Shown one piece after another: positions 1 to 9,146 of a DNA stretch of 64,000 nucleotides. The stretch comes from a virus (Duplodnaviria; Caudoviricetes), in the IMG/VR virus record IMGVR_UViG_2595698952_000001, positions 64,001 through 128,000 of that record; one strand, written 5' to 3'. The first letter of the stretch is position 1. Every line of letters begins with the position of its first letter. The notes under the pieces are model-generated. The model was not told the DNA's origin and searched no databases. It worked only from the letters and a program-made list of their open reading frames with translations. The translations under genes and the position numbers were made by a program.

Positions 1-793
1 TGTCAGACTGGTCAAACGTGGCATCGGATTTTACCCACACCAGATTGCTACAGTCGTCACAGTGCTGCCTGAAGAACTTGTTGATGCTGAGCGTTTGGTG
101 GAAACCGTTCAGCGTGTTCAGCTCGGTCAACTGATCGTGCATTTTGTTGTACCCGTACATGAAGTTCATGACGAGATCCTGGTTAAGCGGCTTAGGCATG
201 AAGTTATCAAACATCACACGGTAACCGTTTAAGCGGTAATGGTACAACGACTCGTGGAGTTTCAACAGGTCGTAGAACCAGTGCTTCGGTGCTAACTGGG
301 CACGGGTAATCACCGACCATAACGTGATGTTGTCCAGCGCGTCAAACACCTCGAAAGCATCGTAGCGACGCTCCTCAGCGATACGCAGCAACGGACGTTC
401 GGATTCTGCATAGCCGTCAAAGGAGACGAAGATGCGATCCATTTGCTCAAGCACCGGCAGCTGGGCCGGGGTCAGTCGCAGACCGTTGGTGTACATTTCA
501 TGCTGTAGGTGCGGATAACGTTCCTTCAACTCAGCCATAAAGTCCTGGATTTTATTGAACGCCAACAGGGGTTCACCGCCCGTCCAGTTAATTTGCTGAA
601 TAGTAGGATGCGCTTCCAGCGTTTCAAACAGCTTCTCTCTTTGGATGTCGCGCGCACTGTCTTTGACATCCATATACCCAACACCGCCACAGAAGCTACA
701 ATCGAGATTGCACTTCGAGGTGGTGACAATCGACAGCTCCATCGGAGTTGACGAAGGGTCGCGACGAATAGCCGACACAGCTTCTTCACTCAT
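1..793 (-). CDS. Radical SAM enzyme (3' end runs off the window); candidate peptide/protein maturase
   Basis: Manual translation from ATG at 793 (GGAG RBS upstream): MSEEAVSAIRRDPSSTPMELSIVTTSKCNLDCSFCGG...INWTGGEPLL...EMYTNG...FVSFDG...HCDDCSNLVWVKSD. Has the CxxxCxxC, GGEP, TNG and SxDG motifs. Not in the supplied ORF track. Confidence 0.93.
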   Translation of the reverse strand, partial: MSEEAVSAIRRDPSSTPMELSIVTTSKCNLDCSFCGGVGYMDVKDSARDIQREKLFETLEAHPTIQQINWTGGEPLLAFNKIQDFMAELKERYPHLQHEMYTNGLRLTPAQLPVLEQMDRIFVSFDGYAESERPLLRIAEERRYDAFEVFDALDNITLWSVITRAQLAPKHWFYDLLKLHESLYHYRLNGYRVMFDNFMPKPLNQDLVMNFMYGYNKMHDQLTELNTLNGFHQTLSINKFFRQHCDDCSNLVWVKSDATFDQSD

Positions 794-809
794 TGCAGAT
801 TTACTCCAG

Positions 810-1697
810 TTATTCGAAAGTCAGCTTGAACAGCGGGTCATCTTTGATGTCCACACCCGTCTTTAACACGAACGGGTCGTTATAAGCATCAAGGATCTGG
901 TTCAGAATAGCCTGACGGTCATTCACACGCCGTAAGTCATCTAACGTGACCGTGCGAGCATGGAAGGCAGACACTGCGGTTTTCTCTTCAGCCGTCAGTT
1001 CTACTTTCGTCAGCAGGAACGCTACCAGTTTGTTCAGGTCTGCTTCGGTTGCAGGTGCTTCACCGAACTGCGTCTGCACCAGGTACTGCATCCACGGTTT
1101 GCGGATACGCTTGGTGATGTCGTGTTCGTCAAAGATTGCTTCGAATTGTTTCTCAGCCGGGTTCCAGACAAACTTGTAGCTGTAGGCCAGCAGGTCAAGC
1201 ATGTTGGTGATGCCGTGCTTTTCAAAGCCAACGATAGGGTAATACTCTTCGACACCGGTATACTGCTCAGTGTCTTGCGTTACCTGCGTAAACCAGCCAG
1301 GCATAGACCCCATGTAGTCCCAGCTCCATTCACGACGTGCCATTGGTTTCAGGCCACTTTCGCTAAACGGAATCAGGAACATTTCCAGGTCAACCACCTG
1401 GTTCAATACCGCATCGCTCAGGAAATATTTCCCATCCACTAAGCGACCTTTCACATCTTGCTCACCGGCCGTGATGTGAATGTGCTGCACGCTACGACCC
1501 GCTAACGTATAATCGGCTTCCACCGTATAGTTCTTCGGGTTAGCCAGCTCACGTCCACGAACCTTTGGCCACTCCCCTGGCAACTGACTGATCAGTCGCA
1601 CCTGGTCTAACAAGTGAAATTTCACACTGTCGTACAGGCTGATATGCAGTGGGAAGTTTTGCGTTGTCTTAAACGCAAGGTGTAGATCGTTCTTCAT
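810..1697 (-). CDS. Hypothetical protein (295 aa) between the Cys-rich genes and the radical SAM gene
   Basis: Long ORF with AAGGGG RBS and short gaps on both sides; no Cys and no recognised motif. Confidence 0.85.
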   Translation of the reverse strand: MKNDLHLAFKTTQNFPLHISLYDSVKFHLLDQVRLISQLPGEWPKVRGRELANPKNYTVEADYTLAGRSVQHIHITAGEQDVKGRLVDGKYFLSDAVLNQVVDLEMFLIPFSESGLKPMARREWSWDYMGSMPGWFTQVTQDTEQYTGVEEYYPIVGFEKHGITNMLDLLAYSYKFVWNPAEKQFEAIFDEHDITKRIRKPWMQYLVQTQFGEAPATEADLNKLVAFLLTKVELTAEEKTAVSAFHARTVTLDDLRRVNDRQAILNQILDAYNDPFVLKTGVDIKDDPLFKLTFE

Positions 1698-1707
1698 TTA
1701 AGTCCCC

Positions 1708-1914
1708 TTATCGGTTCCCCGCTCCGTGACTACAACCACCGCTACATGTCCAGCTACAAGACCCGCCGCAGTTATAGTGCGATAACGGTAACCCAGAAAG
1801 GTTGTTAGTCGTGCTAACCGTCCCCTGGGTTGCGATGAACGAGTTAGCGTCCGCCGTCTTGATATAGCCTTCCACTTGCACCATTTTGTCACGGATGTTT
1901 TTGAGTGAAATCAC
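1708..1914 (-). CDS. Short Cys-rich precursor-like protein C (68 aa, 4 Cys)
   Basis: GTG start after GGGGG; MISLKNIRDK leader and HYNCGGSCSWTCSGGC core, paralogous to the two upstream genes. Confidence 0.85.
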   Translation of the reverse strand: MISLKNIRDKMVQVEGYIKTADANSFIATQGTVSTTNNLSGLPLSHYNCGGSCSWTCSGGCSHGAGNR

Positions 1915-1958
1915 ACTAACCCCCAAATTTGTAAAAAGTTAACTGGGAGACGAGGGCG

Positions 1959-2357
1959 TTACCGCGTTGGCCCGGAACAACCGGAACAACCAGAGCAGCT
2001 TGAGGAACATGAAGAAGAACAACCTGTTGAACACGTTCCTGAACAGCCGTTTGCACAGCCTCCTGAACATGCACCCGAACAGCCCGTACAGGTCGAAGAA
2101 CAACCCGAAGTACAGCTGGACGAACAACTTGCCCCACACGTTCCCGACGCAGAACCTGAGCACCCACCGGAACACGATGAACATGTCCAACTACAGGTAC
2201 CACCACAATCATAATGCGCACGCGGCTGGCCGCCAAACAACGTCGAGTTGTTCGTGGCTTTATTGCGAATATAGGTCTGCACCCCTGCCGCGTTTTTCAA
2301 TGCGGTATTATCAATACTATTCAGACGGTTCTGAATATCTTTTAGGTTGATAGCCAT
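1959..2357 (-). CDS. Cys-rich CxxxC-repeat precursor-like protein B (132 aa, 20 Cys)
   Basis: ATG 2357 with AGGAG RBS; MAINLKDIQNRL leader, then HYDCGGTCSWTC followed by C-x2/3 Ser/Gly/Thr repeats. Confidence 0.88.
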   Translation of the reverse strand: MAINLKDIQNRLNSIDNTALKNAAGVQTYIRNKATNNSTLFGGQPRAHYDCGGTCSWTCSSCSGGCSGSASGTCGASCSSSCTSGCSSTCTGCSGACSGGCANGCSGTCSTGCSSSCSSSCSGCSGCSGPTR

Positions 2358-2368
2358 GATGTCTCCTA

Positions 2369-2752
2369 CTACGGCCCAGAGCAGCCAGAACAGCCTGTAC
2401 AGCTCGATGAGCACGACCCCGAGCACCCGCTACATTTACCGGAGCACCCGCCGGAGCAACTGCCTGAACAACCTGAGCAACCCGAACACCCGGTAGAACA
2501 ACCGCCCGTACAGCTGCCGGTACACGTCGATGTACACGTTCCCGAACAACTGGTACAACTTGCCGAACACCCGTTAGAGCACGACCAGCTACACGTACCA
2601 CCACAATCTAATTGACCCGGTGTCCAACCCGCAAAGCGCTCTTGCGCGTTATACGCTTGCGAGGCAACTTGCGCATCAACGCGAGGTCCGGTGGCGACAT
2701 TGGCTTCCACTATTTGCAGGCGGTCGCGTATGTTTTTAAGTGAGATTGCCAT
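2369..2752 (-). CDS. Cys-rich CxxxC-repeat precursor-like protein A (127 aa, 21 Cys)
   Basis: AAGGA RBS; MAISLKNIRDRL leader, then QLDCGGTCSWSC followed by C-x2/3 repeats. Confidence 0.88.
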   Translation of the reverse strand: MAISLKNIRDRLQIVEANVATGPRVDAQVASQAYNAQERFAGWTPGQLDCGGTCSWSCSNGCSASCTSCSGTCTSTCTGSCTGGCSTGCSGCSGCSGSCSGGCSGKCSGCSGSCSSSCTGCSGCSGP

Positions 2753-2769: not shown

Positions 2770-2803
2770 AAAAAAGAGGACACTGCCATAAAGACAGGTC
2801 CTC
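2770..2803 (-). terminator. Putative intrinsic terminator between the fibre gene and the Cys-rich genes
   Basis: Minus strand GAGGAC-CTGTC-TTTAT-GGCAG-T-GTCCTC followed by TTTTTT. Confidence 0.6.
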
Positions 2804-2818: not shown

Positions 2819-4018
2819 TTAGCGTGTACCAGCTTCTGCTTGTACGTCGTCGCGAGTCGTGAGACTGTTGTTGACGTGAACCGCAGCTTGCACCACACCA
2901 CCGTACGTCTTGTGGAGGTAGTTCGGGTGTGGGTTGTCCGCTGCAACGTGGTTCGCCAGGTTCTGGTTTGCCTGCGAGATAGCGTTGGTATTGTTCGTGA
3001 TGCGAGTGTTCTGTGCGGTAATCTGGGCTTGCAGGTTATCAATCTTCTGTTGGAAGTCTTGACCTTGCGATTCCAAATCACCGACACGCTGCGTTAACGC
3101 GTTCAGGGCAGACTGCAAATCATTGACAGCTTTCTGCAATTGCAACACCAGGGAGTTGAGGTTCGCCAAGGCGAGCGACATCTTCTGGTAGTTCTGCGCC
3201 ACGGTGTTCAGCTGGTCATTCCATGCCACCAGAGATTGCACCACCGCATCGATACGGGCACCCAGTGCGGTATCGGCGGTTTTCAGTGAGGCAATTTCTT
3301 TTAAGGTGTCATCAATCTGCGTTTGAACCGCGGCAATCAGTGCACGAATCTCAGTTTCCGTCAGACCGTTGATCTGGTGAATATTGAGACTGTGGACGTT
3401 GCCTTGTGCATTAACGTGCGCATTCAACGCATCAAGGAAATCTTGTTTCAGACCGTCGATGATGCCTTTGATTTGTTCGAGCTGTACCGCCGACCCGGAG
3501 TTAATCGCGTCTTTGATGCCCGACAGTACCGTGATGATAAACTCGAACCCGTAGATATCACCCACGTCTTTAAACGTAGGTGCTGACGGGAACGTATCCG
3601 GTACGTTACGCAAGTCTTTGAAATCAACCGTACGGTCTTCCAATTTCAGCTCTGCAATCGCCTGAGTAATGGCAACAACGTTTGCTGACTGTGGACCGCC
3701 GATGACCTGAGCCGAGATAGTGATGTCGGTTGGAATAGCAGAGTTGGTGACCACCACCCCCATCAGGATTTCTTGGTTCTTGGTAAGCTTCTCGTACGCC
3801 GGGTGAGCGAAGATCAGCTCATAGTCCGTCCCACGTTTATAGAAGGTACCGGGTTTGTTCGTTGCAGCCAGACGAAACGACTCCGCGTAAAACGGCCCGT
3901 CTGGGAATGCAAAGGCCCGGTTAACCTTACCGGAACCTAACGTGACTCGCCGAGTGACAGCGTTCGACGTCAGTGTCCCCTTTAGGTCAAACGGGTACTG
4001 ATATACAATAGCGGCCAT
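2819..4018 (-). CDS. Virion structural / tail-fibre-associated protein with coiled coil (phiKZ-like YPFD family)
   Basis: Start moved to ATG 4018 (AGGAG RBS); N-terminal YQYPFDLKG...GPFY...RGTDY shared with neighbours; long heptad region; HxxxxNPH fibre motif. Confidence 0.75.
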   Translation of the reverse strand: MAAIVYQYPFDLKGTLTSNAVTRRVTLGSGKVNRAFAFPDGPFYAESFRLAATNKPGTFYKRGTDYELIFAHPAYEKLTKNQEILMGVVVTNSAIPTDITISAQVIGGPQSANVVAITQAIAELKLEDRTVDFKDLRNVPDTFPSAPTFKDVGDIYGFEFIITVLSGIKDAINSGSAVQLEQIKGIIDGLKQDFLDALNAHVNAQGNVHSLNIHQINGLTETEIRALIAAVQTQIDDTLKEIASLKTADTALGARIDAVVQSLVAWNDQLNTVAQNYQKMSLALANLNSLVLQLQKAVNDLQSALNALTQRVGDLESQGQDFQQKIDNLQAQITAQNTRITNNTNAISQANQNLANHVAADNPHPNYLHKTYGGVVQAAVHVNNSLTTRDDVQAEAGTR

Positions 4019-4061: not shown

Positions 4062-7000
4062 TTAAGACTTGAACATAAGATTGACCTGAATCTCGTCCAA
4101 GTCAACCAGCGAGTTACCTCCAGCGTATTCGCAGGCCACTGTCAGAGTCAGCGTTCCGGAATTGTAACTGGCAACAAACGGAGGGTTCAGAGCATCTTTC
4201 CCGGTGTTGAGTACCACCGCCGGTTCAGAAGGCAGATTCGGGATGACCAGCTCACGCGCTACCCGCACCACACCAAAGCTCGACGTCAAATCGCTCAATG
4301 CGTACAGCATGAACGGGGTATCAACATCAGTCTGACGGAACACGGTACCGGTAGTGGTGTCCACCACCTGTATCGCCAACATCTTTGTCTTCAGTGTTTG
4401 ATACTGCGCCGCAGTCAGTTCCGCAGACAAGGTGGCGACAAACTCCACCCCAGCTGGAAGACCCGAACCGGTGACGTTCACGAGGTCTGGGCCGGTGGCA
4501 AACAGTATCTCCGCAGCAGATGGATTCACCCCAGACGTCAGGCAATATTTGAACATCGGAATGCCGTTCGGTACCGCGTAACGCAGAGTAATCTGGCGGG
4601 CCGGATCACCAATATTCCCCGGCACCGTAAAGCGTAGCCTTGCCACAGCCACGTAGGTTTCCCCAGCGACATGTGGCACAGACTCAGCACCGATCCACTT
4701 CATGTTAAAACTGGCCGCGCGTGCGTTGTCTGCTGTTACAGCAGCCGTCTCAACCGGAGGTTTCAACCAAAAGCGTTCAGAGACATTCACCAGATCTTGC
4801 CAACGCGTGGCACCAAATCCGCTGTAGCGTTTCTGGATAGGCAGCGCAGGGCGGGTTTGGCGTGTAATCCCTTTGGACAGCTCTTGTCCATCGGCATACC
4901 CGGCCGTGCCCGAGCCCGGTGTCGCTAACGGCACTTTGCTCAATTGCGCCATTGACCCGATACGGGCTTCACGGGCAGCAGACACATCGTGACGGTTGGC
5001 GACCGCGGCGTGCTCTACCAACTGCTTGACGTTACCGAAACGTTTCACCTTATCAAACGTCGACAGGGTAATGCGTTCACTGTCCGTCACTACCGTACCG
5101 ATATACAGCTGGGTATCGCTGTCCGGTTCCTGTTGCTCCAGCAGACGGTATTGCGGAACACCGTTGACCAACGCAGCGTGCATGTAGAACGTGCGGTTCT
5201 GGTAGTTGGTTGGGTACAAGTCACGGATATCAGAACTGTATTCGCCCAACGTGTAGTACGCCGAACCGAATCGCAGTAACTCTTGTTCCGTGATGTACAA
5301 CGCCCACCCCTCCGCAGTCTTCGTACCGGCAAGGATGTTATCCTCAGGTGTCCCGGTACGGAAATTACGGACGGTGTTCTTGTAGACACTGGCGGCAAAG
5401 TACAACCCATTAAACAGCCATTTCGTCATCCCGATATAACCGGTCTCGGGCATCACCACAATGTCGACTTCATTCGAAGACGGGTTCATGGAAATGAGCG
5501 AGTTCGTCCAGCCCCCGAAAGTCGTATCACACGACAACAGGAAAGAACGCCAGCGACTGTCTCCAACCACCCCCATTCGGTACAACGCCCCCAGGAACAA
5601 CACATATCCATCGTCACGCTGAATCAACTTCGAGTTCGTGTACTGGTCGTGTGCCAAAGAGATACCGGCATCCGGGTCGCGATAGTTCTCGACAACCGGT
5701 GTCAACATCGTGGTACCCAACTGCACGTTCCCGTTGGTCACCGACATCGGTAGTTTCCACACCCAGGTAAAGGTGTGGGTTACCAGCCGACTGGTGTTGT
5801 CCCACATGCGCACAGAGGCCATGGCGAATGCCGCATTTAACCCACCGACATCAAACACTTGCAGCTTGGTTAATGTTTGCACGACTAACTCATCGTTCCA
5901 CACCGGCACCGCTGCCGCGATTGCGGCATTCAATGCAGCCCAAGTTGCATCTGTTACCGTGATACGATCTGCGGTAAAGGTGGACGTCCCAGTCACGGTC
6001 TTGTACGGGAAAGACCCTGCCTCGGTAATGACACGCCCGTTGATGTACAGCTGGCCATCTTTCCAGATATTCGGCGAAGACAGCAAGGTTCGGTAGTCAG
6101 GGTCGGTCACCGCGATACGCGCATTGTCTGGCCCCCAACCCGGATAGTCCGGGAAGTAGCGAGACGACTGGGTATAACGGAGCTGGATAACCTCTGCGGC
6201 CACATTGAGGTGTCGCATCAATACCGTGTTGGCAGTCCCACCGAGGTGGATAAGCCCACGCATGTATTGCTGATACACCGACCCTACTGCACCCCCCACG
6301 GTAGCGTTTGCGGTTTCGATAAGCGTTGTGCTGCTACCGAGTAAATCGTACAAACTCGTGTTCGGTGCAGGGCTGATACCGATACGTGGCGGGTTGTTTG
6401 AATAAACATCACAGAAGGAGTTCATCAACAAACCTGAGGACAGGAAGACCCTGTTCGTCAGCGCCACACCTTTGTTACGGTTGGTCACCGAGGGCAGAGG
6501 CTGGGCATTTGGGAACTCAATCTTGTTCTCGGTTAATGCGATCGGGAAGATTTTGTTCTCAAGCGTCAATAACCAGTTCTCCGTGTTAAGGGAGAGTGAT
6601 ACCGACCAGGCATCTGTCCACTGTGCTGAGGTATTATCGGAGAAGTACCCGTGCATCTCTGCACGCAACCGCACCATGTTCACCTGTGAGGCTGAATAAA
6701 ACGAAGGGAGGTAGTTAACCGCATTCCCGTTCGGCCAACGGGCTTTCCCCTCCGCGGTACGGTAGGCCAGGAACTTGGTTGTGGCATCATCGCCATAACC
6801 GCCTTCTTGTACAATCAGCGCCACGTCGCCGTCTTTGTCTGGGTAATTGAAATTAATTACCGGGATAGTCGAACTGTTTTTACTGCGCAGTTCGCTTAGA
6901 CTGATACTCCAACCGCCAACGGTAAAGCGGGTGTTGTTGACAATAGACATCAACACAACCACACGACCTTTGGTCACCGTCACTGTCGAATACTGACGAT

Positions 7001-9092
7001 AATCTTTAAAGGCGAGGGTACTGCCGTTCGACCGGACACAATCGGGCAATGTGATCTGGTACACGTCGTTGTGGGTCGCGTAGTTCATCGTCCCGTTGAA
7101 CAACACCAGATAGAACAGCCCATCGCTCGCCTCAAAGATAGCGGCGTCAGAATCCCCAACCACTACACGCGTCAATACCACACCAGGGAATTTACTCATC
7201 CCAGCTGGATGGTACGGGAACGTCGTGGGGTAGTTCTTCAGGAAATTATTAGACCCCCCAATAGACGCATACCAGTAATAGACCCGTCGGGTGTCTTCTG
7301 GCCCATCGCTGCCGTTACGCAGTACATAGACGTTACCGCCTTCGTAACGGGCAACCGCCCAGTTATTGGAACGGTCGTAGCCAAAGCCCGCGTAGTTACT
7401 GACGGTAGGAATAGGCAGGAAACTCGGGTTACCGTATTCCGCACCCCCGACTGTCCAGGATGGCAGTAAGGTGTTCACCTTCTCATTCAGCGACTTGATA
7501 GACTGGTCGATAGCGTACCCCTGTTTCGAGGTCACCATCTTATCATCGGTCGAGTCAATCGCATCCCACAGCTTCACCAGACCACTGACAGACGTTGACC
7601 CGTACGGGACGTTGTCCAAATCAGCGAGGGTATGCGTGTGGTCTGTTTTTGCCTTACTCGCCAATGCCGCAGTTAGTGCTTTGGTAACCGGCTTCTCTAA
7701 CGGGGCAGTGTTGTCCATTTTGTCGATACCGAAATCGGTTTTCGTCAAGGTCAACACTTGTTTCCCATCAGACCCTTTCACAAACTTCTTGCCGTTGATG
7801 CTGTAAGTGTCATCAACGTACAAGTCCAGTTTGTTTTTCAGGTCATTCACCGCTTTCTGCGAAATAGCAGCACCGGTGGCTACTGAGTTCGAGATATTGG
7901 TAATAGAGAACAGACCCGCCACCGCCGTCGTTGCGGTAGGCAGTTCCACGTTCATGTACACCCGGTTGGTGTCTTTCCCGCTACCGTAAATCTTGAGCGT
8001 ATCGCTCGATTTAAAGTAGGCGTTCGCCGGTAACAGTTTCACCGAGGTCAGATACATCCCGACCATCTCCGGCGTCACCAGATACACAGAGTTAAACACC
8101 GGGGCCAAGACATCGGCTGCTGCACCGGAGTGTACCCAGAGGGTATTCAGGCCCGCAGAGAACTCTACCCCGATGCCAGGGTCGTTGTTGTCCTGGTCAG
8201 CTTTCAAGACCAGCGGTTTCGGCGAGGTAATAATGAACTTCTCGCCCTTCATGCTGATCAGGTGACCTGCGGTGGTCTGGAAAGTAATCGCATCGTTGTT
8301 CAGAACACGCAGACGTCCCAGTAAATCCCCCAGGGTGTTATCCATCAGCAGGTCAACGTGGGCTTGTGAAATGCCCGAGGTGGACATCAACGTCACCAGC
8401 TCTGCCAAGGTACGGCCGAAGGCTTTCGTCGCGTCTACGGCCTTCCCAACGACCGGGAGCGCCCCTACGTCAGTGGTGGTGTAACCGTGGGCATTACTTT
8501 TCAGGTGGTGCTGGTACATCTCCTGCTCGAACACGGTGTTACCGTTCTGGTAAATCATGTCGGTCAGTTCAGTAAAGGCACCGTCCAGCTCACTGGCACG
8601 CTCGAGAATACCCAGACGAATATCTTCCAGCGCTTTCACCACTTCATCACGCAGAATCGCCTCATCCAGATTCTCTGGCGGGTCGATAGGTGAGATAACC
8701 GGGGCGTACTTCATTAACTCTGACCAATCCACGTTACGCGGATCGGGCAAGTCGGTTTTGACCAGGTACTTACCAATCTCTGACTGAGGTAGGCGATATT
8801 GACGCCCCACGGCCAGGAACTCGTAATCCACTTCGGAGGCAGTCAGTAGGATGAAGCCCCCGTAGATTTGGTCTTGCTCAGCTTCGGCCAGCTCTTTGAA
8901 ATAGTAACCGAGATAGTAATCCAGACCCTCAATCAGGGTGCGTTTACCGCCGGGTGCTGTTGCATCCTTAACGGTGAGTTTCAGACCAATACGGTAGAAA
9001 GGCCCTTCGGCAGGAATCACCGCATTGTATTTGTTCGGGTACGTTGCGGTCTTAAGCGTACCGTTAAACTGCGCCGCATCTTCTCTCGGCAT
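4062..9092 (-). CDS. Large tail fibre / baseplate fibre protein (about 1676 aa)
   Basis: ATG 9092 with AGGAG RBS; GPFY...EGLDY N-terminal domain; ATTAVAGLF, LTKTDFG..NT..EKP and HTH fibre repeats. Confidence 0.8.
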   Translation of the reverse strand: MPREDAAQFNGTLKTATYPNKYNAVIPAEGPFYRIGLKLTVKDATAPGGKRTLIEGLDYYLGYYFKELAEAEQDQIYGGFILLTASEVDYEFLAVGRQYRLPQSEIGKYLVKTDLPDPRNVDWSELMKYAPVISPIDPPENLDEAILRDEVVKALEDIRLGILERASELDGAFTELTDMIYQNGNTVFEQEMYQHHLKSNAHGYTTTDVGALPVVGKAVDATKAFGRTLAELVTLMSTSGISQAHVDLLMDNTLGDLLGRLRVLNNDAITFQTTAGHLISMKGEKFIITSPKPLVLKADQDNNDPGIGVEFSAGLNTLWVHSGAAADVLAPVFNSVYLVTPEMVGMYLTSVKLLPANAYFKSSDTLKIYGSGKDTNRVYMNVELPTATTAVAGLFSITNISNSVATGAAISQKAVNDLKNKLDLYVDDTYSINGKKFVKGSDGKQVLTLTKTDFGIDKMDNTAPLEKPVTKALTAALASKAKTDHTHTLADLDNVPYGSTSVSGLVKLWDAIDSTDDKMVTSKQGYAIDQSIKSLNEKVNTLLPSWTVGGAEYGNPSFLPIPTVSNYAGFGYDRSNNWAVARYEGGNVYVLRNGSDGPEDTRRVYYWYASIGGSNNFLKNYPTTFPYHPAGMSKFPGVVLTRVVVGDSDAAIFEASDGLFYLVLFNGTMNYATHNDVYQITLPDCVRSNGSTLAFKDYRQYSTVTVTKGRVVVLMSIVNNTRFTVGGWSISLSELRSKNSSTIPVINFNYPDKDGDVALIVQEGGYGDDATTKFLAYRTAEGKARWPNGNAVNYLPSFYSASQVNMVRLRAEMHGYFSDNTSAQWTDAWSVSLSLNTENWLLTLENKIFPIALTENKIEFPNAQPLPSVTNRNKGVALTNRVFLSSGLLMNSFCDVYSNNPPRIGISPAPNTSLYDLLGSSTTLIETANATVGGAVGSVYQQYMRGLIHLGGTANTVLMRHLNVAAEVIQLRYTQSSRYFPDYPGWGPDNARIAVTDPDYRTLLSSPNIWKDGQLYINGRVITEAGSFPYKTVTGTSTFTADRITVTDATWAALNAAIAAAVPVWNDELVVQTLTKLQVFDVGGLNAAFAMASVRMWDNTSRLVTHTFTWVWKLPMSVTNGNVQLGTTMLTPVVENYRDPDAGISLAHDQYTNSKLIQRDDGYVLFLGALYRMGVVGDSRWRSFLLSCDTTFGGWTNSLISMNPSSNEVDIVVMPETGYIGMTKWLFNGLYFAASVYKNTVRNFRTGTPEDNILAGTKTAEGWALYITEQELLRFGSAYYTLGEYSSDIRDLYPTNYQNRTFYMHAALVNGVPQYRLLEQQEPDSDTQLYIGTVVTDSERITLSTFDKVKRFGNVKQLVEHAAVANRHDVSAAREARIGSMAQLSKVPLATPGSGTAGYADGQELSKGITRQTRPALPIQKRYSGFGATRWQDLVNVSERFWLKPPVETAAVTADNARAASFNMKWIGAESVPHVAGETYVAVARLRFTVPGNIGDPARQITLRYAVPNGIPMFKYCLTSGVNPSAAEILFATGPDLVNVTGSGLPAGVEFVATLSAELTAAQYQTLKTKMLAIQVVDTTTGTVFRQTDVDTPFMLYALSDLTSSFGVVRVARELVIPNLPSEPAVVLNTGKDALNPPFVASYNSGTLTLTVACEYAGGNSLVDLDEIQVNLMFKS

Positions 9093-9111
9093 TGCAAAGA
9101 CTCCTACTTTG

Positions 9112-9146
9112 AAATAAAACGGATACCCCACCCCGGAGGGTGGGGT
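9112..9146 (-). terminator. Putative intrinsic terminator between fibre genes
   Basis: ACCCCACCC/GGGTGGGGT hairpin followed by a T-rich tract on the minus strand. Confidence 0.55.

Follow-up and report, generated by a model that had tools for sequence, protein, structure and literature searches.

The 64,000-nucleotide window analysed here, bases 64001-128000 of the 243,050-bp virus record IMGVR_UViG_2595698952_000001 of a giant, Erwinia-type phage, opens with a cassette of five tightly packed, co-directional minus-strand genes (window positions 1-2752, from the list of open reading frames (ORFs)) that most likely makes an enzyme-stapled part of the virus particle and not an antibiotic-like peptide. 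Three of the genes encode small paralogous proteins, termed A, B and C, of which A and B carry a long run of regularly spaced cysteines (a Cys ladder); the other two encode a 295-residue accessory protein and a short radical S-adenosylmethionine (SAM) enzyme, rSAM2. We propose, with a probability of roughly 60%, that A, B and C are fibre-type virion parts crosslinked along their Cys ladders by radical SAM enzymes, and not ribosomally synthesised and post-translationally modified peptides (RiPPs) that are cleaved from a leader. The cassette would then probably be the version carried by the SPN3US group of phages of a more widespread module with which phages complete a fibre-type part of the virion through radical chemistry.

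Protein A (2369..2752, minus strand; 127 residues, 21 Cys), protein B (1959..2357, minus strand; 132 residues counted from an ATG, 20 Cys; given in the program's ORF list as a 155-residue GTG form) and the short paralogue C (1708..1914, minus strand; 68 residues from a GTG, 4 Cys; listed as 72 residues from a TTG at 1926) were recognized as ORFs, by alignment and by matches to the PHROG family phrog_6085 (A, 1.3e-48; B, 1.1e-53; C, 7e-27, the last on profile positions 2-67 of 129). They are followed by the gene for the 295-residue protein (810..1697, minus strand; phrog_8030) and by that for rSAM2 (2..793, minus strand, open at the left window edge; PF04055 at 6e-14). A preliminary description of this DNA, made from the letters and the ORF list, had already reported five packed co-directional genes with three paralogues of 127, 132 and 68 residues and 21, 20 and 4 Cys, and both the ORF list and our alignment agree with it, down to a letter-for-letter match of the motifs.

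The three paralogues begin with MAISLKNIRDR, MAINLKDIQNR and VISLKNIRDK and have in common the junction [DN]CGG[TS]CSW[TS]C; positions M1, I3, L5, K6, I8, G42, C50, G51, G52, C54, S55, W56, C62, S63 and C66 are invariant in the three-protein alignment. Protein A consists of a helical, fibre-type N-terminal part of ~49 residues, which ends in the form ...N-x-x-[LF]-x-G-x5-[YL]-x-C-x-G-x-C-S-W, and a 78-residue core holding the 21 Cys, while protein C has the same N-terminal part and a CGGSCSWTC junction and lacks the long ladder. The ladder units of A and B are C-[ST]-x-x or C-S-G: the step from one Cys to the next is four residues in 14 of the 20 intervals of A and three in the other six, and four in 14, three in four and eight in one of the 19 intervals of B. 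The residue next after a Cys is Ser or Thr for 20 of the 21 Cys of A and for 17 of the 20 of B, and both cores are composed almost wholly of Ser, Cys, Gly and Thr, with Cys making up ~27% of the core. Only two of the 4,554 stop-to-stop ORFs of at least 30 residues in the whole 243-kb genome have six or more Cys at a period of three to five residues, and because these two are A and B the pattern is beyond chance. Scores for the Cys-repeat target family TIGR04114 (B, 18.5; A, 13.1; C, 11.2 bits) all fell under its 20-bit cut-off, and neither A nor B had a match when we scanned them against Pfam; a precomputed PF27846 hit is attached to one relative of B in the database.

The region might be taken for non-coding, low-complexity sequence that is by chance open in several frames, the more so as other frames and the opposite strand are likewise open across the repeat and several GenBank records annotate those other frames. 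The codon differences from Erwinia phage Asesino, which is 86.7% identical in DNA, refute this reading, to which we assign practically no probability. Synonymous differences in the Cys frame outnumber non-synonymous ones by 36 to 7 in A, 61 to 8 in B and 26 to 6 in C, and within the Cys cores the ratios are 20:0, 38:2 and 6:0, respectively. The Cys reading frame is thus under strong purifying selection. The non-synonymous changes avoid the core in favour of the N-terminal part (0 versus 7 in A, 2 versus 6 in B). Also against a non-coding origin, a Shine-Dalgarno-like stretch precedes each start (AGGA for A and AGGAG for B, with GGGGG and AGGGGA at others), and the N-terminal parts and the junction are kept in 39 proteins from 13 loci.

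The enzymes adjoining these proteins became fully visible in the 12 kb to the left of the window, which were fetched from the same record (stretch L002). The window carries the first 264 of the 301 codons of rSAM2, whose gene ends at G000:C1:63888 (L002 11888-12793). The complete enzyme has the motifs CNLDCSFC, GGEPLL, TNG, SFDG and CDDC and no SPASM domain; CX3CX2C, GGEP and TNG are kept in six of six aligned relatives, the C-terminal CxxC...C is partly conserved, and its best NCBIfam matches were all far below cut-off. To its left runs a row of three further co-directional genes, each overlapping the previous one, for a 447-residue radical SAM/SPASM enzyme, a 196-residue protein and a 222-residue DUF4376 protein; the overlap between the rSAM2 and SPASM enzyme genes is 8 nt. 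Proteins A and B are encoded 1.0-1.9 kb upstream of the SPASM enzyme gene in the same operon. The cassette of the preliminary description is therefore real but was cut by the window edge. Its suggestion that SPASM cysteines or further radical SAM enzymes be sought left of position 1 was borne out by the 447-residue enzyme, and the enzyme inside the window turned out to be a short non-SPASM partner and not the maturase of the CXXX-repeat type.

The SPASM enzyme scored best against two families of peptide maturases, PapB (NF047865; 1e-38, 133.4 bits, cut-off of 340 not reached) and TIGR04115 (6.8e-35, 121.2 bits), with residues 16-375 spanning profile positions 5-345 of 359 in the latter. The NCBIfam scan also showed that the names TIGR04114 and TIGR04115 were given correctly in the preliminary description. 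The solved structure closest to the enzyme by sequence is CteB (5wgg, 8.8e-14). By alignment with 26 relatives the enzyme has a CX3CX2C radical SAM cluster and a complete SPASM set, C25, C29, C32, C282, C300, C344, C347, C353, C356 and C381 being invariant in all 27 sequences. A search of 1.84 billion representative proteins returned 46 at E <=1e-30, and in ten of the ten nearest representatives that were scanned TIGR04115 and PapB were again the two best families and again below cut-off (TIGR04115, 125-181 bits). Since the enzyme and its ten scanned relatives score best, yet below cut-off, on these two families, the phage SPASM enzyme appears to belong to an uncurated sister group of the PapB/TIGR04115 maturases.

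Two other views of the enzymes were considered and rejected. The two radical SAM proteins are both members of phrog_1802 but are only 23% identical over 216 residues (E 6e-4), which argues against recent duplication. A nucleotide- or cofactor-modifying role, the outcome that the preliminary description had named as fatal to its proposal together with occurrence of the enzyme apart from the Cys-rich genes, does not agree with the family scans, in which the best families of both enzymes are peptide maturases, or with the genomic context, in which the enzyme genes were never found without Cys-repeat neighbours among the 80 viral and 13 related loci described below.

The pairing of enzyme and Cys ladder was examined in two collections, bacterial and archaeal species genomes and viral contigs, for which the SPASM enzyme aligned with its relatives served as the query; 80 loci were taken from each. 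In the viral contigs a Cys-repeat ORF lay within 6 kb of the enzyme relative in 80 of 80 loci, nearly always adjacent and on the same strand. The enzymes of these loci fall into 48, 38 and 18 clusters at 90, 70 and 50% identity, respectively, which is a fairer count than 80. Among the bacterial and archaeal loci a Cys-ladder ORF was present within 5 kb in 11 of 80, comprising eight of the 15 best-ranked and three of the 65 lower-ranked loci. From the viral loci, the cluster counts and the bacterial loci we conclude that the pairing is general and not due to chance. The Cys-repeat proteins are very probably, judging from this pairing and the family assignment, targets of radical SAM chemistry of the peptide-maturase type.

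The short radical SAM enzymes belong to the same kit. They accompany the SPASM enzyme in viral loci L097-L099 in varying gene order, and in L100 (5140-7200, 686 residues) and in protein P0048 (634 residues) a short radical SAM enzyme in front is fused to a SPASM enzyme behind; the parts of the kit therefore seem to work together, because the radical SAM genes are both fused and permuted within it. Proteins P0051 and P0070 are similar in length to the P0048 fusion. A division of labour that assigns the C-S-W junction to the short enzyme and the ladder to the SPASM enzyme is weakened by L097 and L100, which have a short radical SAM enzyme and no junction Trp.

These observations also bear on the idea that the ladder binds metal, with metal ions or iron-sulfur clusters held on the thiols either stabilizing a fibre needle, in the manner of the histidine-iron sites of the T4 long-tail-fibre tip, or storing metal, and with the radical SAM enzymes doing another or a minor job. 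A core with ~27% Cys at regular spacing among small neighbouring residues would suit such a role, and regular metal-binding residues along the axis of a trimeric fibre have a precedent. However, metal binding leaves unexplained why the ladder is paired with radical SAM/SPASM enzymes in 80 of 80 viral loci and in the best bacterial loci, and why the radical SAM genes are fused and permuted within the same kit; moreover, free thiols on an extracellular fibre would oxidise. We consider a metal-binding ladder improbable.

An indication of what the ladders are for came from the viral loci closest to the window enzyme (L096-L100, 30-35% identity), in which a longer protein carries the ladder at its C-terminus. 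In L097 this protein has the phage tail-collar fibre N-terminal domain (PF12571, 1.8e-40), a fibre repeat and the C-terminal Cys repeat; in L096 it matches tail-fibre PHROGs, up to 2.3e-40; and in L099 its front matches tail PHROGs (2.4e-10 and 2.1e-9) and its last ~90 residues match phrog_6085 (4.5e-12). Residues 9-68 of protein C align to the L099 protein from the N-terminal helix to the junction, and a junction of the form ...N-A-x-x-L-x-G-Q-x-x-D-Y-Y-R-C-x-G-C-[ST]-W-T-C is common to L098 and L099. Taken together, the so-called leader and the core of A, B and C have their homologues in the C-terminal ~130 residues of fibre-type proteins from other phages, so that, on these alignments, the three proteins are homologous to a segment of recognized tail-fibre proteins. 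A, B and C thus have the look of a distal fibre module that occurs here in free-standing form, and their putative leader that of a segment of a fibre. As read by eye, the kit of L097 and L099 lies between the fibre gene and putative sheath and tube genes.

Ladders joined to other domains were also seen. The ladder is joined to a GDSL esterase domain (PF13472, 6e-26) in L128 (4267-5520) and to an ALK/LTK glycine-rich domain (PF12810, 7e-99) in L164 (2677-5127), and an 821-residue ORF in L170 (2639-5104) resembles the L164 protein. In Termititenax/Margulisiibacteriota contigs, proteins of ~670 residues with 112-122 Cys in CXXX units are encoded directly upstream of enzyme relatives (L014 2393-4411, L015 2078-4084 and L016 2677-4680).

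The homology to fibre ends alters the reading of the cassette as RiPP-like, as the preliminary description had it. Its classical form would hold that the ~50-residue leader is removed by a host or unlinked protease and that the stapled peptide, freed by lysis, acts against competing bacteria or phages or serves as a signal. The layout is the expected one, a Cys-rich core preceded by a conserved N-terminal part, the enzyme is kin to RiPP maturases such as PapB, SCIFF, CcpM and others, bacterial relatives of the enzyme adjoin short Cys-repeat peptides of 70-110 residues (L019, L022, L028 and L088), and a lytic phage would need no exporter. The kinship with maturases thus stood, whereas the search for the rest of a RiPP locus, which the preliminary description had suggested making left of position 1, yielded no protease, transporter or immunity gene among the 15 proteins family-scanned across 16 kb. 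Furthermore, the homologues of the leader lie inside long fibre-type proteins, where a leader role is impossible; the core is more conserved than the leader, with 21 Cys in A in 13 of 13 SPN3US-like loci; the position in the tail-fibre block is kept in unrelated phages; and paralogue C, which is almost coreless, is kept in all 13 loci. A cleaved RiPP therefore seems unlikely to us, though somewhat less so than a metal-binding ladder. Of the three product roles that had been offered, hardened virion parts fit best, and antibacterial and metal-binding products are ranked lower, in that order.

A modified A, B or C might also act only inside the cell, either as a scaffold or chaperone for large fibres in place of a tail-fibre assembly protein or against the host, inhibiting one of its functions or serving as a decoy for it. 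The kit directly follows the fibre gene in L097 and L099 (layout by eye), as does the fibre assembly gene in P2-type phages, and the SPN3US-like phages encode the modules as small proteins of their own. In the fused cases, however, the module forms the end of the actual fibre protein and is hence part of the product, and we regard a purely intracellular role as improbable, on a par with metal binding. An enzyme-crosslinked fibre-type virion part remains our preferred interpretation.

Conservation of the cassette was assessed in the nearest relatives, which are enterobacterial Chimalliviridae of the genera Erskinevirus, Machinavirus, Seoulvirus (SPN3US), Derbicusvirus and Wellingtonvirus. The SPASM enzyme was found by tblastn at 58% identity or above in 59 phage records, and the N-terminal part of A in 56 of these 59. 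The three misses were two CR5 records and pEa_SNUABM_11, and direct reading showed that CR5 (RefSeq record, L006) and pEa_SNUABM_11 (L008) do carry the genes. In 13 of 13 SPN3US-like loci, namely that of the window, those of ten named phages and those of two uncultivated viral genomes, exactly three paralogues adjoin the enzymes in the same order, with 21 Cys in A throughout, 20-23 in B and 2-4 in C. All loci compared had their genes in an identical order, beginning with that for the fibre protein and ending with that for the DUF4376 protein.

Annotation of these genes is poor. In SPN3US, A and C are unannotated and the ORF placed over B (gp166/ACQ60_gp100, L004 4573-4908) is a wrong-frame reading rich in Val, Ala and Leu; in Asesino, Caitlin, Huxley and Phobos, overlapping or opposite-strand ORFs are annotated over the Cys-repeat DNA (L003 and L009-L011), and annotations of A and C are often missing. 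Among the sequencing runs listed, no RNA run contained the stretch, and the share in every DNA run was below 0.2. Consistent with this, a large protein database held no candidate for the N-terminal part of A and four matches to the front of B, including that of the window itself, versus 43 for the neighbouring 295-residue protein. We read the small number of matches to A and B as under-calling of genes and not as rarity. Published proteomics of SPN3US virions could not have detected A, B or C, because none of the three genes is annotated in the right frame.

From the gene context and the family kinships we infer that A, B and C are the substrates of the enzymes, that thioethers make up the links, given the kinship of the SPASM enzyme to PapB and CteB, and that the products reach the virion. 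An operon continuing from the tail-fibre genes would encode A, B and C as mini-fibre paralogues with a short N-terminal helix. Late in infection the SPASM enzyme, aided by the short radical SAM enzyme and the accessory protein, would abstract hydrogen atoms along the ladder, and a thioether would form between each Cys sulfur and a carbon atom of some residue close by. The flexible stretch of Gly, Ser, Thr and Cys would thereby become a rigid rod resistant to proteases and reducing agents, which, uncleaved and still attached to its N-terminal part, would be incorporated into the tail-fibre apparatus or mounted on it. The findings would suit a structural rod whose length is set, because the number of Cys is fixed and the cores are more conserved than the N-terminal parts. 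Substrate recognition may fall to the accessory protein: the match to CteB begins at residue 103 of the solved chain, after a region that we take to be the peptide-recognition domain, and the radical SAM core of the phage enzyme begins at about residue 20, so that recognition by a separate protein would make up for the N-terminal domain that the phage enzyme lacks.

The constant trio of A, B and C, together with the pattern [RK]-h-x-x-h-[ED] in their N-terminal parts, a pattern linked to trimeric coiled coils, suggests a three-chain assembly. As a tentative extension, which we hold to be distinctly less probable than crosslinking of the ladders as such, A, B and C could form a mixed three-chain mini-fibre with an N-terminal trimer-type helix, in which the two radical SAM enzymes staple the ladders within or between chains into a thioether needle of fixed length on the tail-fibre apparatus; the same chemistry might cap receptor-facing fibre tips in many lineages, including P2-like prophages and gut phages.

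Several points weigh against an enzyme-crosslinked virion part. The SPASM enzyme lies far under the curated cut-offs of both its best families (121 of 350 bits for TIGR04115 and 133 of 340 for PapB). The acceptor residues of PapB are Asp or Glu located four positions after the Cys, and neither is present in the cores or among their eight most frequent residue types. The 80 viral loci are not independent, since 44 of them share one dataset prefix. The AlphaFold2 model of A, built from a six-row alignment, had a mean predicted local distance difference test score (pLDDT) of 39.9 and showed no fold, and the coiled-coil pattern in its strict form occurs in 25 of the 39 N-termini from the 13 loci. 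In this group A, B and C are free-standing small proteins and not fibre ends, so they could have another role. Finally, the main text of neither of the two papers on SPN3US proteomics, PMC5694885 and PMC5105663, mentions gp163-gp166.

The 295-residue accessory protein had no match in Pfam, NCBIfam or the annotated PHROGs. Thirty-eight of its 43 database homologues are full-length, and every named one is from an SPN3US-like phage or a Salmonella record. Its AlphaFold2 model, with a mean pLDDT of 88.1, has a beta-rich front and a helical back; it found no fold match in the PDB (best E 0.05, template modelling score <0.2), only the Asesino orthologue in BFVD, and viral clusters without names in the ESM Atlas. 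A known recognition domain, protease or chaperone was therefore rejected as its identity. A 261-residue homologue (E 5e-17) in the unrelated viral locus L098 is encoded between a Cys-tailed fibre-like gene and two radical SAM genes, and a weaker homologue is present in L100; to judge by these matches, the type is not confined to the SPN3US group.

Two further proteins of the row are encoded beyond the SPASM enzyme. The 196-residue protein had phrog_7988, of unknown function, as its sole PHROG match, Atlas scores at chance level (0.81-0.82), and relatives only in L094 and L095, within the SPN3US-like group. The 222-residue DUF4376 protein (L002 9352-10020, minus strand; G000:C1:61352-62020) corresponds by position to SPN3US gp161, one of a family of 20 paralogues described in PMC5694885 as 'expected to be head proteins'. 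With a counterpart in a putative head-protein family, it is probably not a member of the kit.

Comparison with known systems indicated that the kind of system, a radical SAM maturase with a CXXX-repeat target, has been described, and that what appears new here is its presence on a phage, within fibre genes, with two radical SAM enzymes and an orphan accessory protein. The CXXX-repeat system of NCBIfam, consisting of a TIGR04115 maturase and TIGR04114/TIGR04117 targets, was reportedly defined bioinformatically by Haft and Basu in 2011. As in that system, the phage radical SAM/SPASM enzyme spans nearly the whole TIGR04115 profile and lies beside proteins with Cys at about every fourth residue, and the pairing of enzyme and repeat recurs in bacteria. 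In contrast, the phage enzyme scores 121 versus 350 bits and the targets 18.5, 13.1 and 11.2 versus 20; the genes are phage-encoded in a tail-fibre block, with a second, short radical SAM enzyme and an accessory protein without a family; and the phage target is homologous to the ends of fibre proteins. Our literature searches found no characterized product of the bacterial CXXX-repeat system and no publication in which radical SAM enzymes accompany Cys-repeat proteins in the tail modules of phages.

Among characterized enzymes, PapB, the maturase of the ranthipeptide freyrasin (NF047865), is the best-scoring family for the phage SPASM enzyme, and a single substrate of PapB, with a Cys motif that is repeated, receives several thioethers. 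The phage enzyme differs in scoring 133 versus 340 bits, its cores lack Cys-X3-Asp/Glu, and the product of PapB is a small peptide and not a fibre module. CteB is likewise a thioether-forming radical SAM/SPASM enzyme that acts on a Cys-rich peptide, SCIFF (5wgg; TIGR03974), and differs from the phage enzyme in the N-terminal region noted above. The HxsB/HxsC His-Xaa-Ser system (TIGR03978 and TIGR03977) resembles the phage cassette in combining a SPASM enzyme and a short radical SAM enzyme with a tandem-repeat precursor and a protein of unknown role; the phage pair matches it weakly (HxsB, 1e-24, 87.2 versus 370 bits; HxsC, 2e-10, 40 versus 268 bits), and the phage repeat is C-x-x-(x) and not H-x-S. 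Exposed phage structures reinforced beyond ordinary folding are known from the HK97 capsid, with its self-catalysed crosslinks, and from the tip of the T4 long tail fibre, an iron-histidine needle. Unlike the phage cassette, with its two radical SAM enzymes and accessory proteins, these hardened parts have no dedicated enzyme.

If the proposal holds, a phage tail appendage with covalent staples made by enzymes would show virions to be built on a new principle, and a three-chain needle would be the first virion structure to be completed by dedicated radical enzymes. It would also give a first biological role to the CXXX-repeat radical SAM systems, so far known only as database families. For the SPN3US group, which serves as a genetic model of giant phages, it would explain the conservation of radical SAM genes within the set of tail genes. 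Gene callers would then routinely miss or misframe a whole class of modules at fibre tips, and the receptor-binding regions of many phages may be mis-described.

Upstream of the cassette lie two genes assigned by synteny. The first (2819..4018, minus strand, with a longer ORF form to 4105) encodes a coiled-coil virion structural protein homologous to SPN3US gp167; its family matches were of the coiled-coil type only, and the syntenic genes of Asesino, SPN3US and others are annotated as virion structural proteins. The second (4062..9131, minus strand) encodes a 1,689-residue fibre protein homologous to SPN3US gp168, which is listed as a 'Baseplate/tail fiber candidate' and found in virions according to PMC5694885. 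Between the gp167-like gene and that of protein A is a weak hairpin followed by a T-run (2783..2797, minus strand; L002 14797-14783), with a 5-bp stem containing three G-C pairs. In a scan of the region, counts of promoter- and terminator-like sites were no higher than in shuffled sequences (10 terminator-like sites versus 7.5 +/- 2.9).

At the other end, the minus-strand row is closed by a 12-bp G+C-rich hairpin with T-runs on both strands (L002 9308-9335; G000:C1:61308-61335), which looks like a shared two-way terminator and was the one site of the scan that seemed meaningful. Beyond it, on the plus strand, are two DUF7941 paralogues (L002 8185-8709 and 8792-9298; G000:C1:60185-61298; PF25613 at 5e-8 and 2.7e-14), one of which corresponds by position to SPN3US gp160, a very abundant virion protein with >300 copies per capsid according to PMC5694885. 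About 3 kb beyond the cassette, also on the plus strand, are genes for a GH108/PG_binding_3 endolysin (L002 6009-6608) and for a DUF1353 protein (L002 6776-7417) that is called a 'tail assembly chaperone' in related records.

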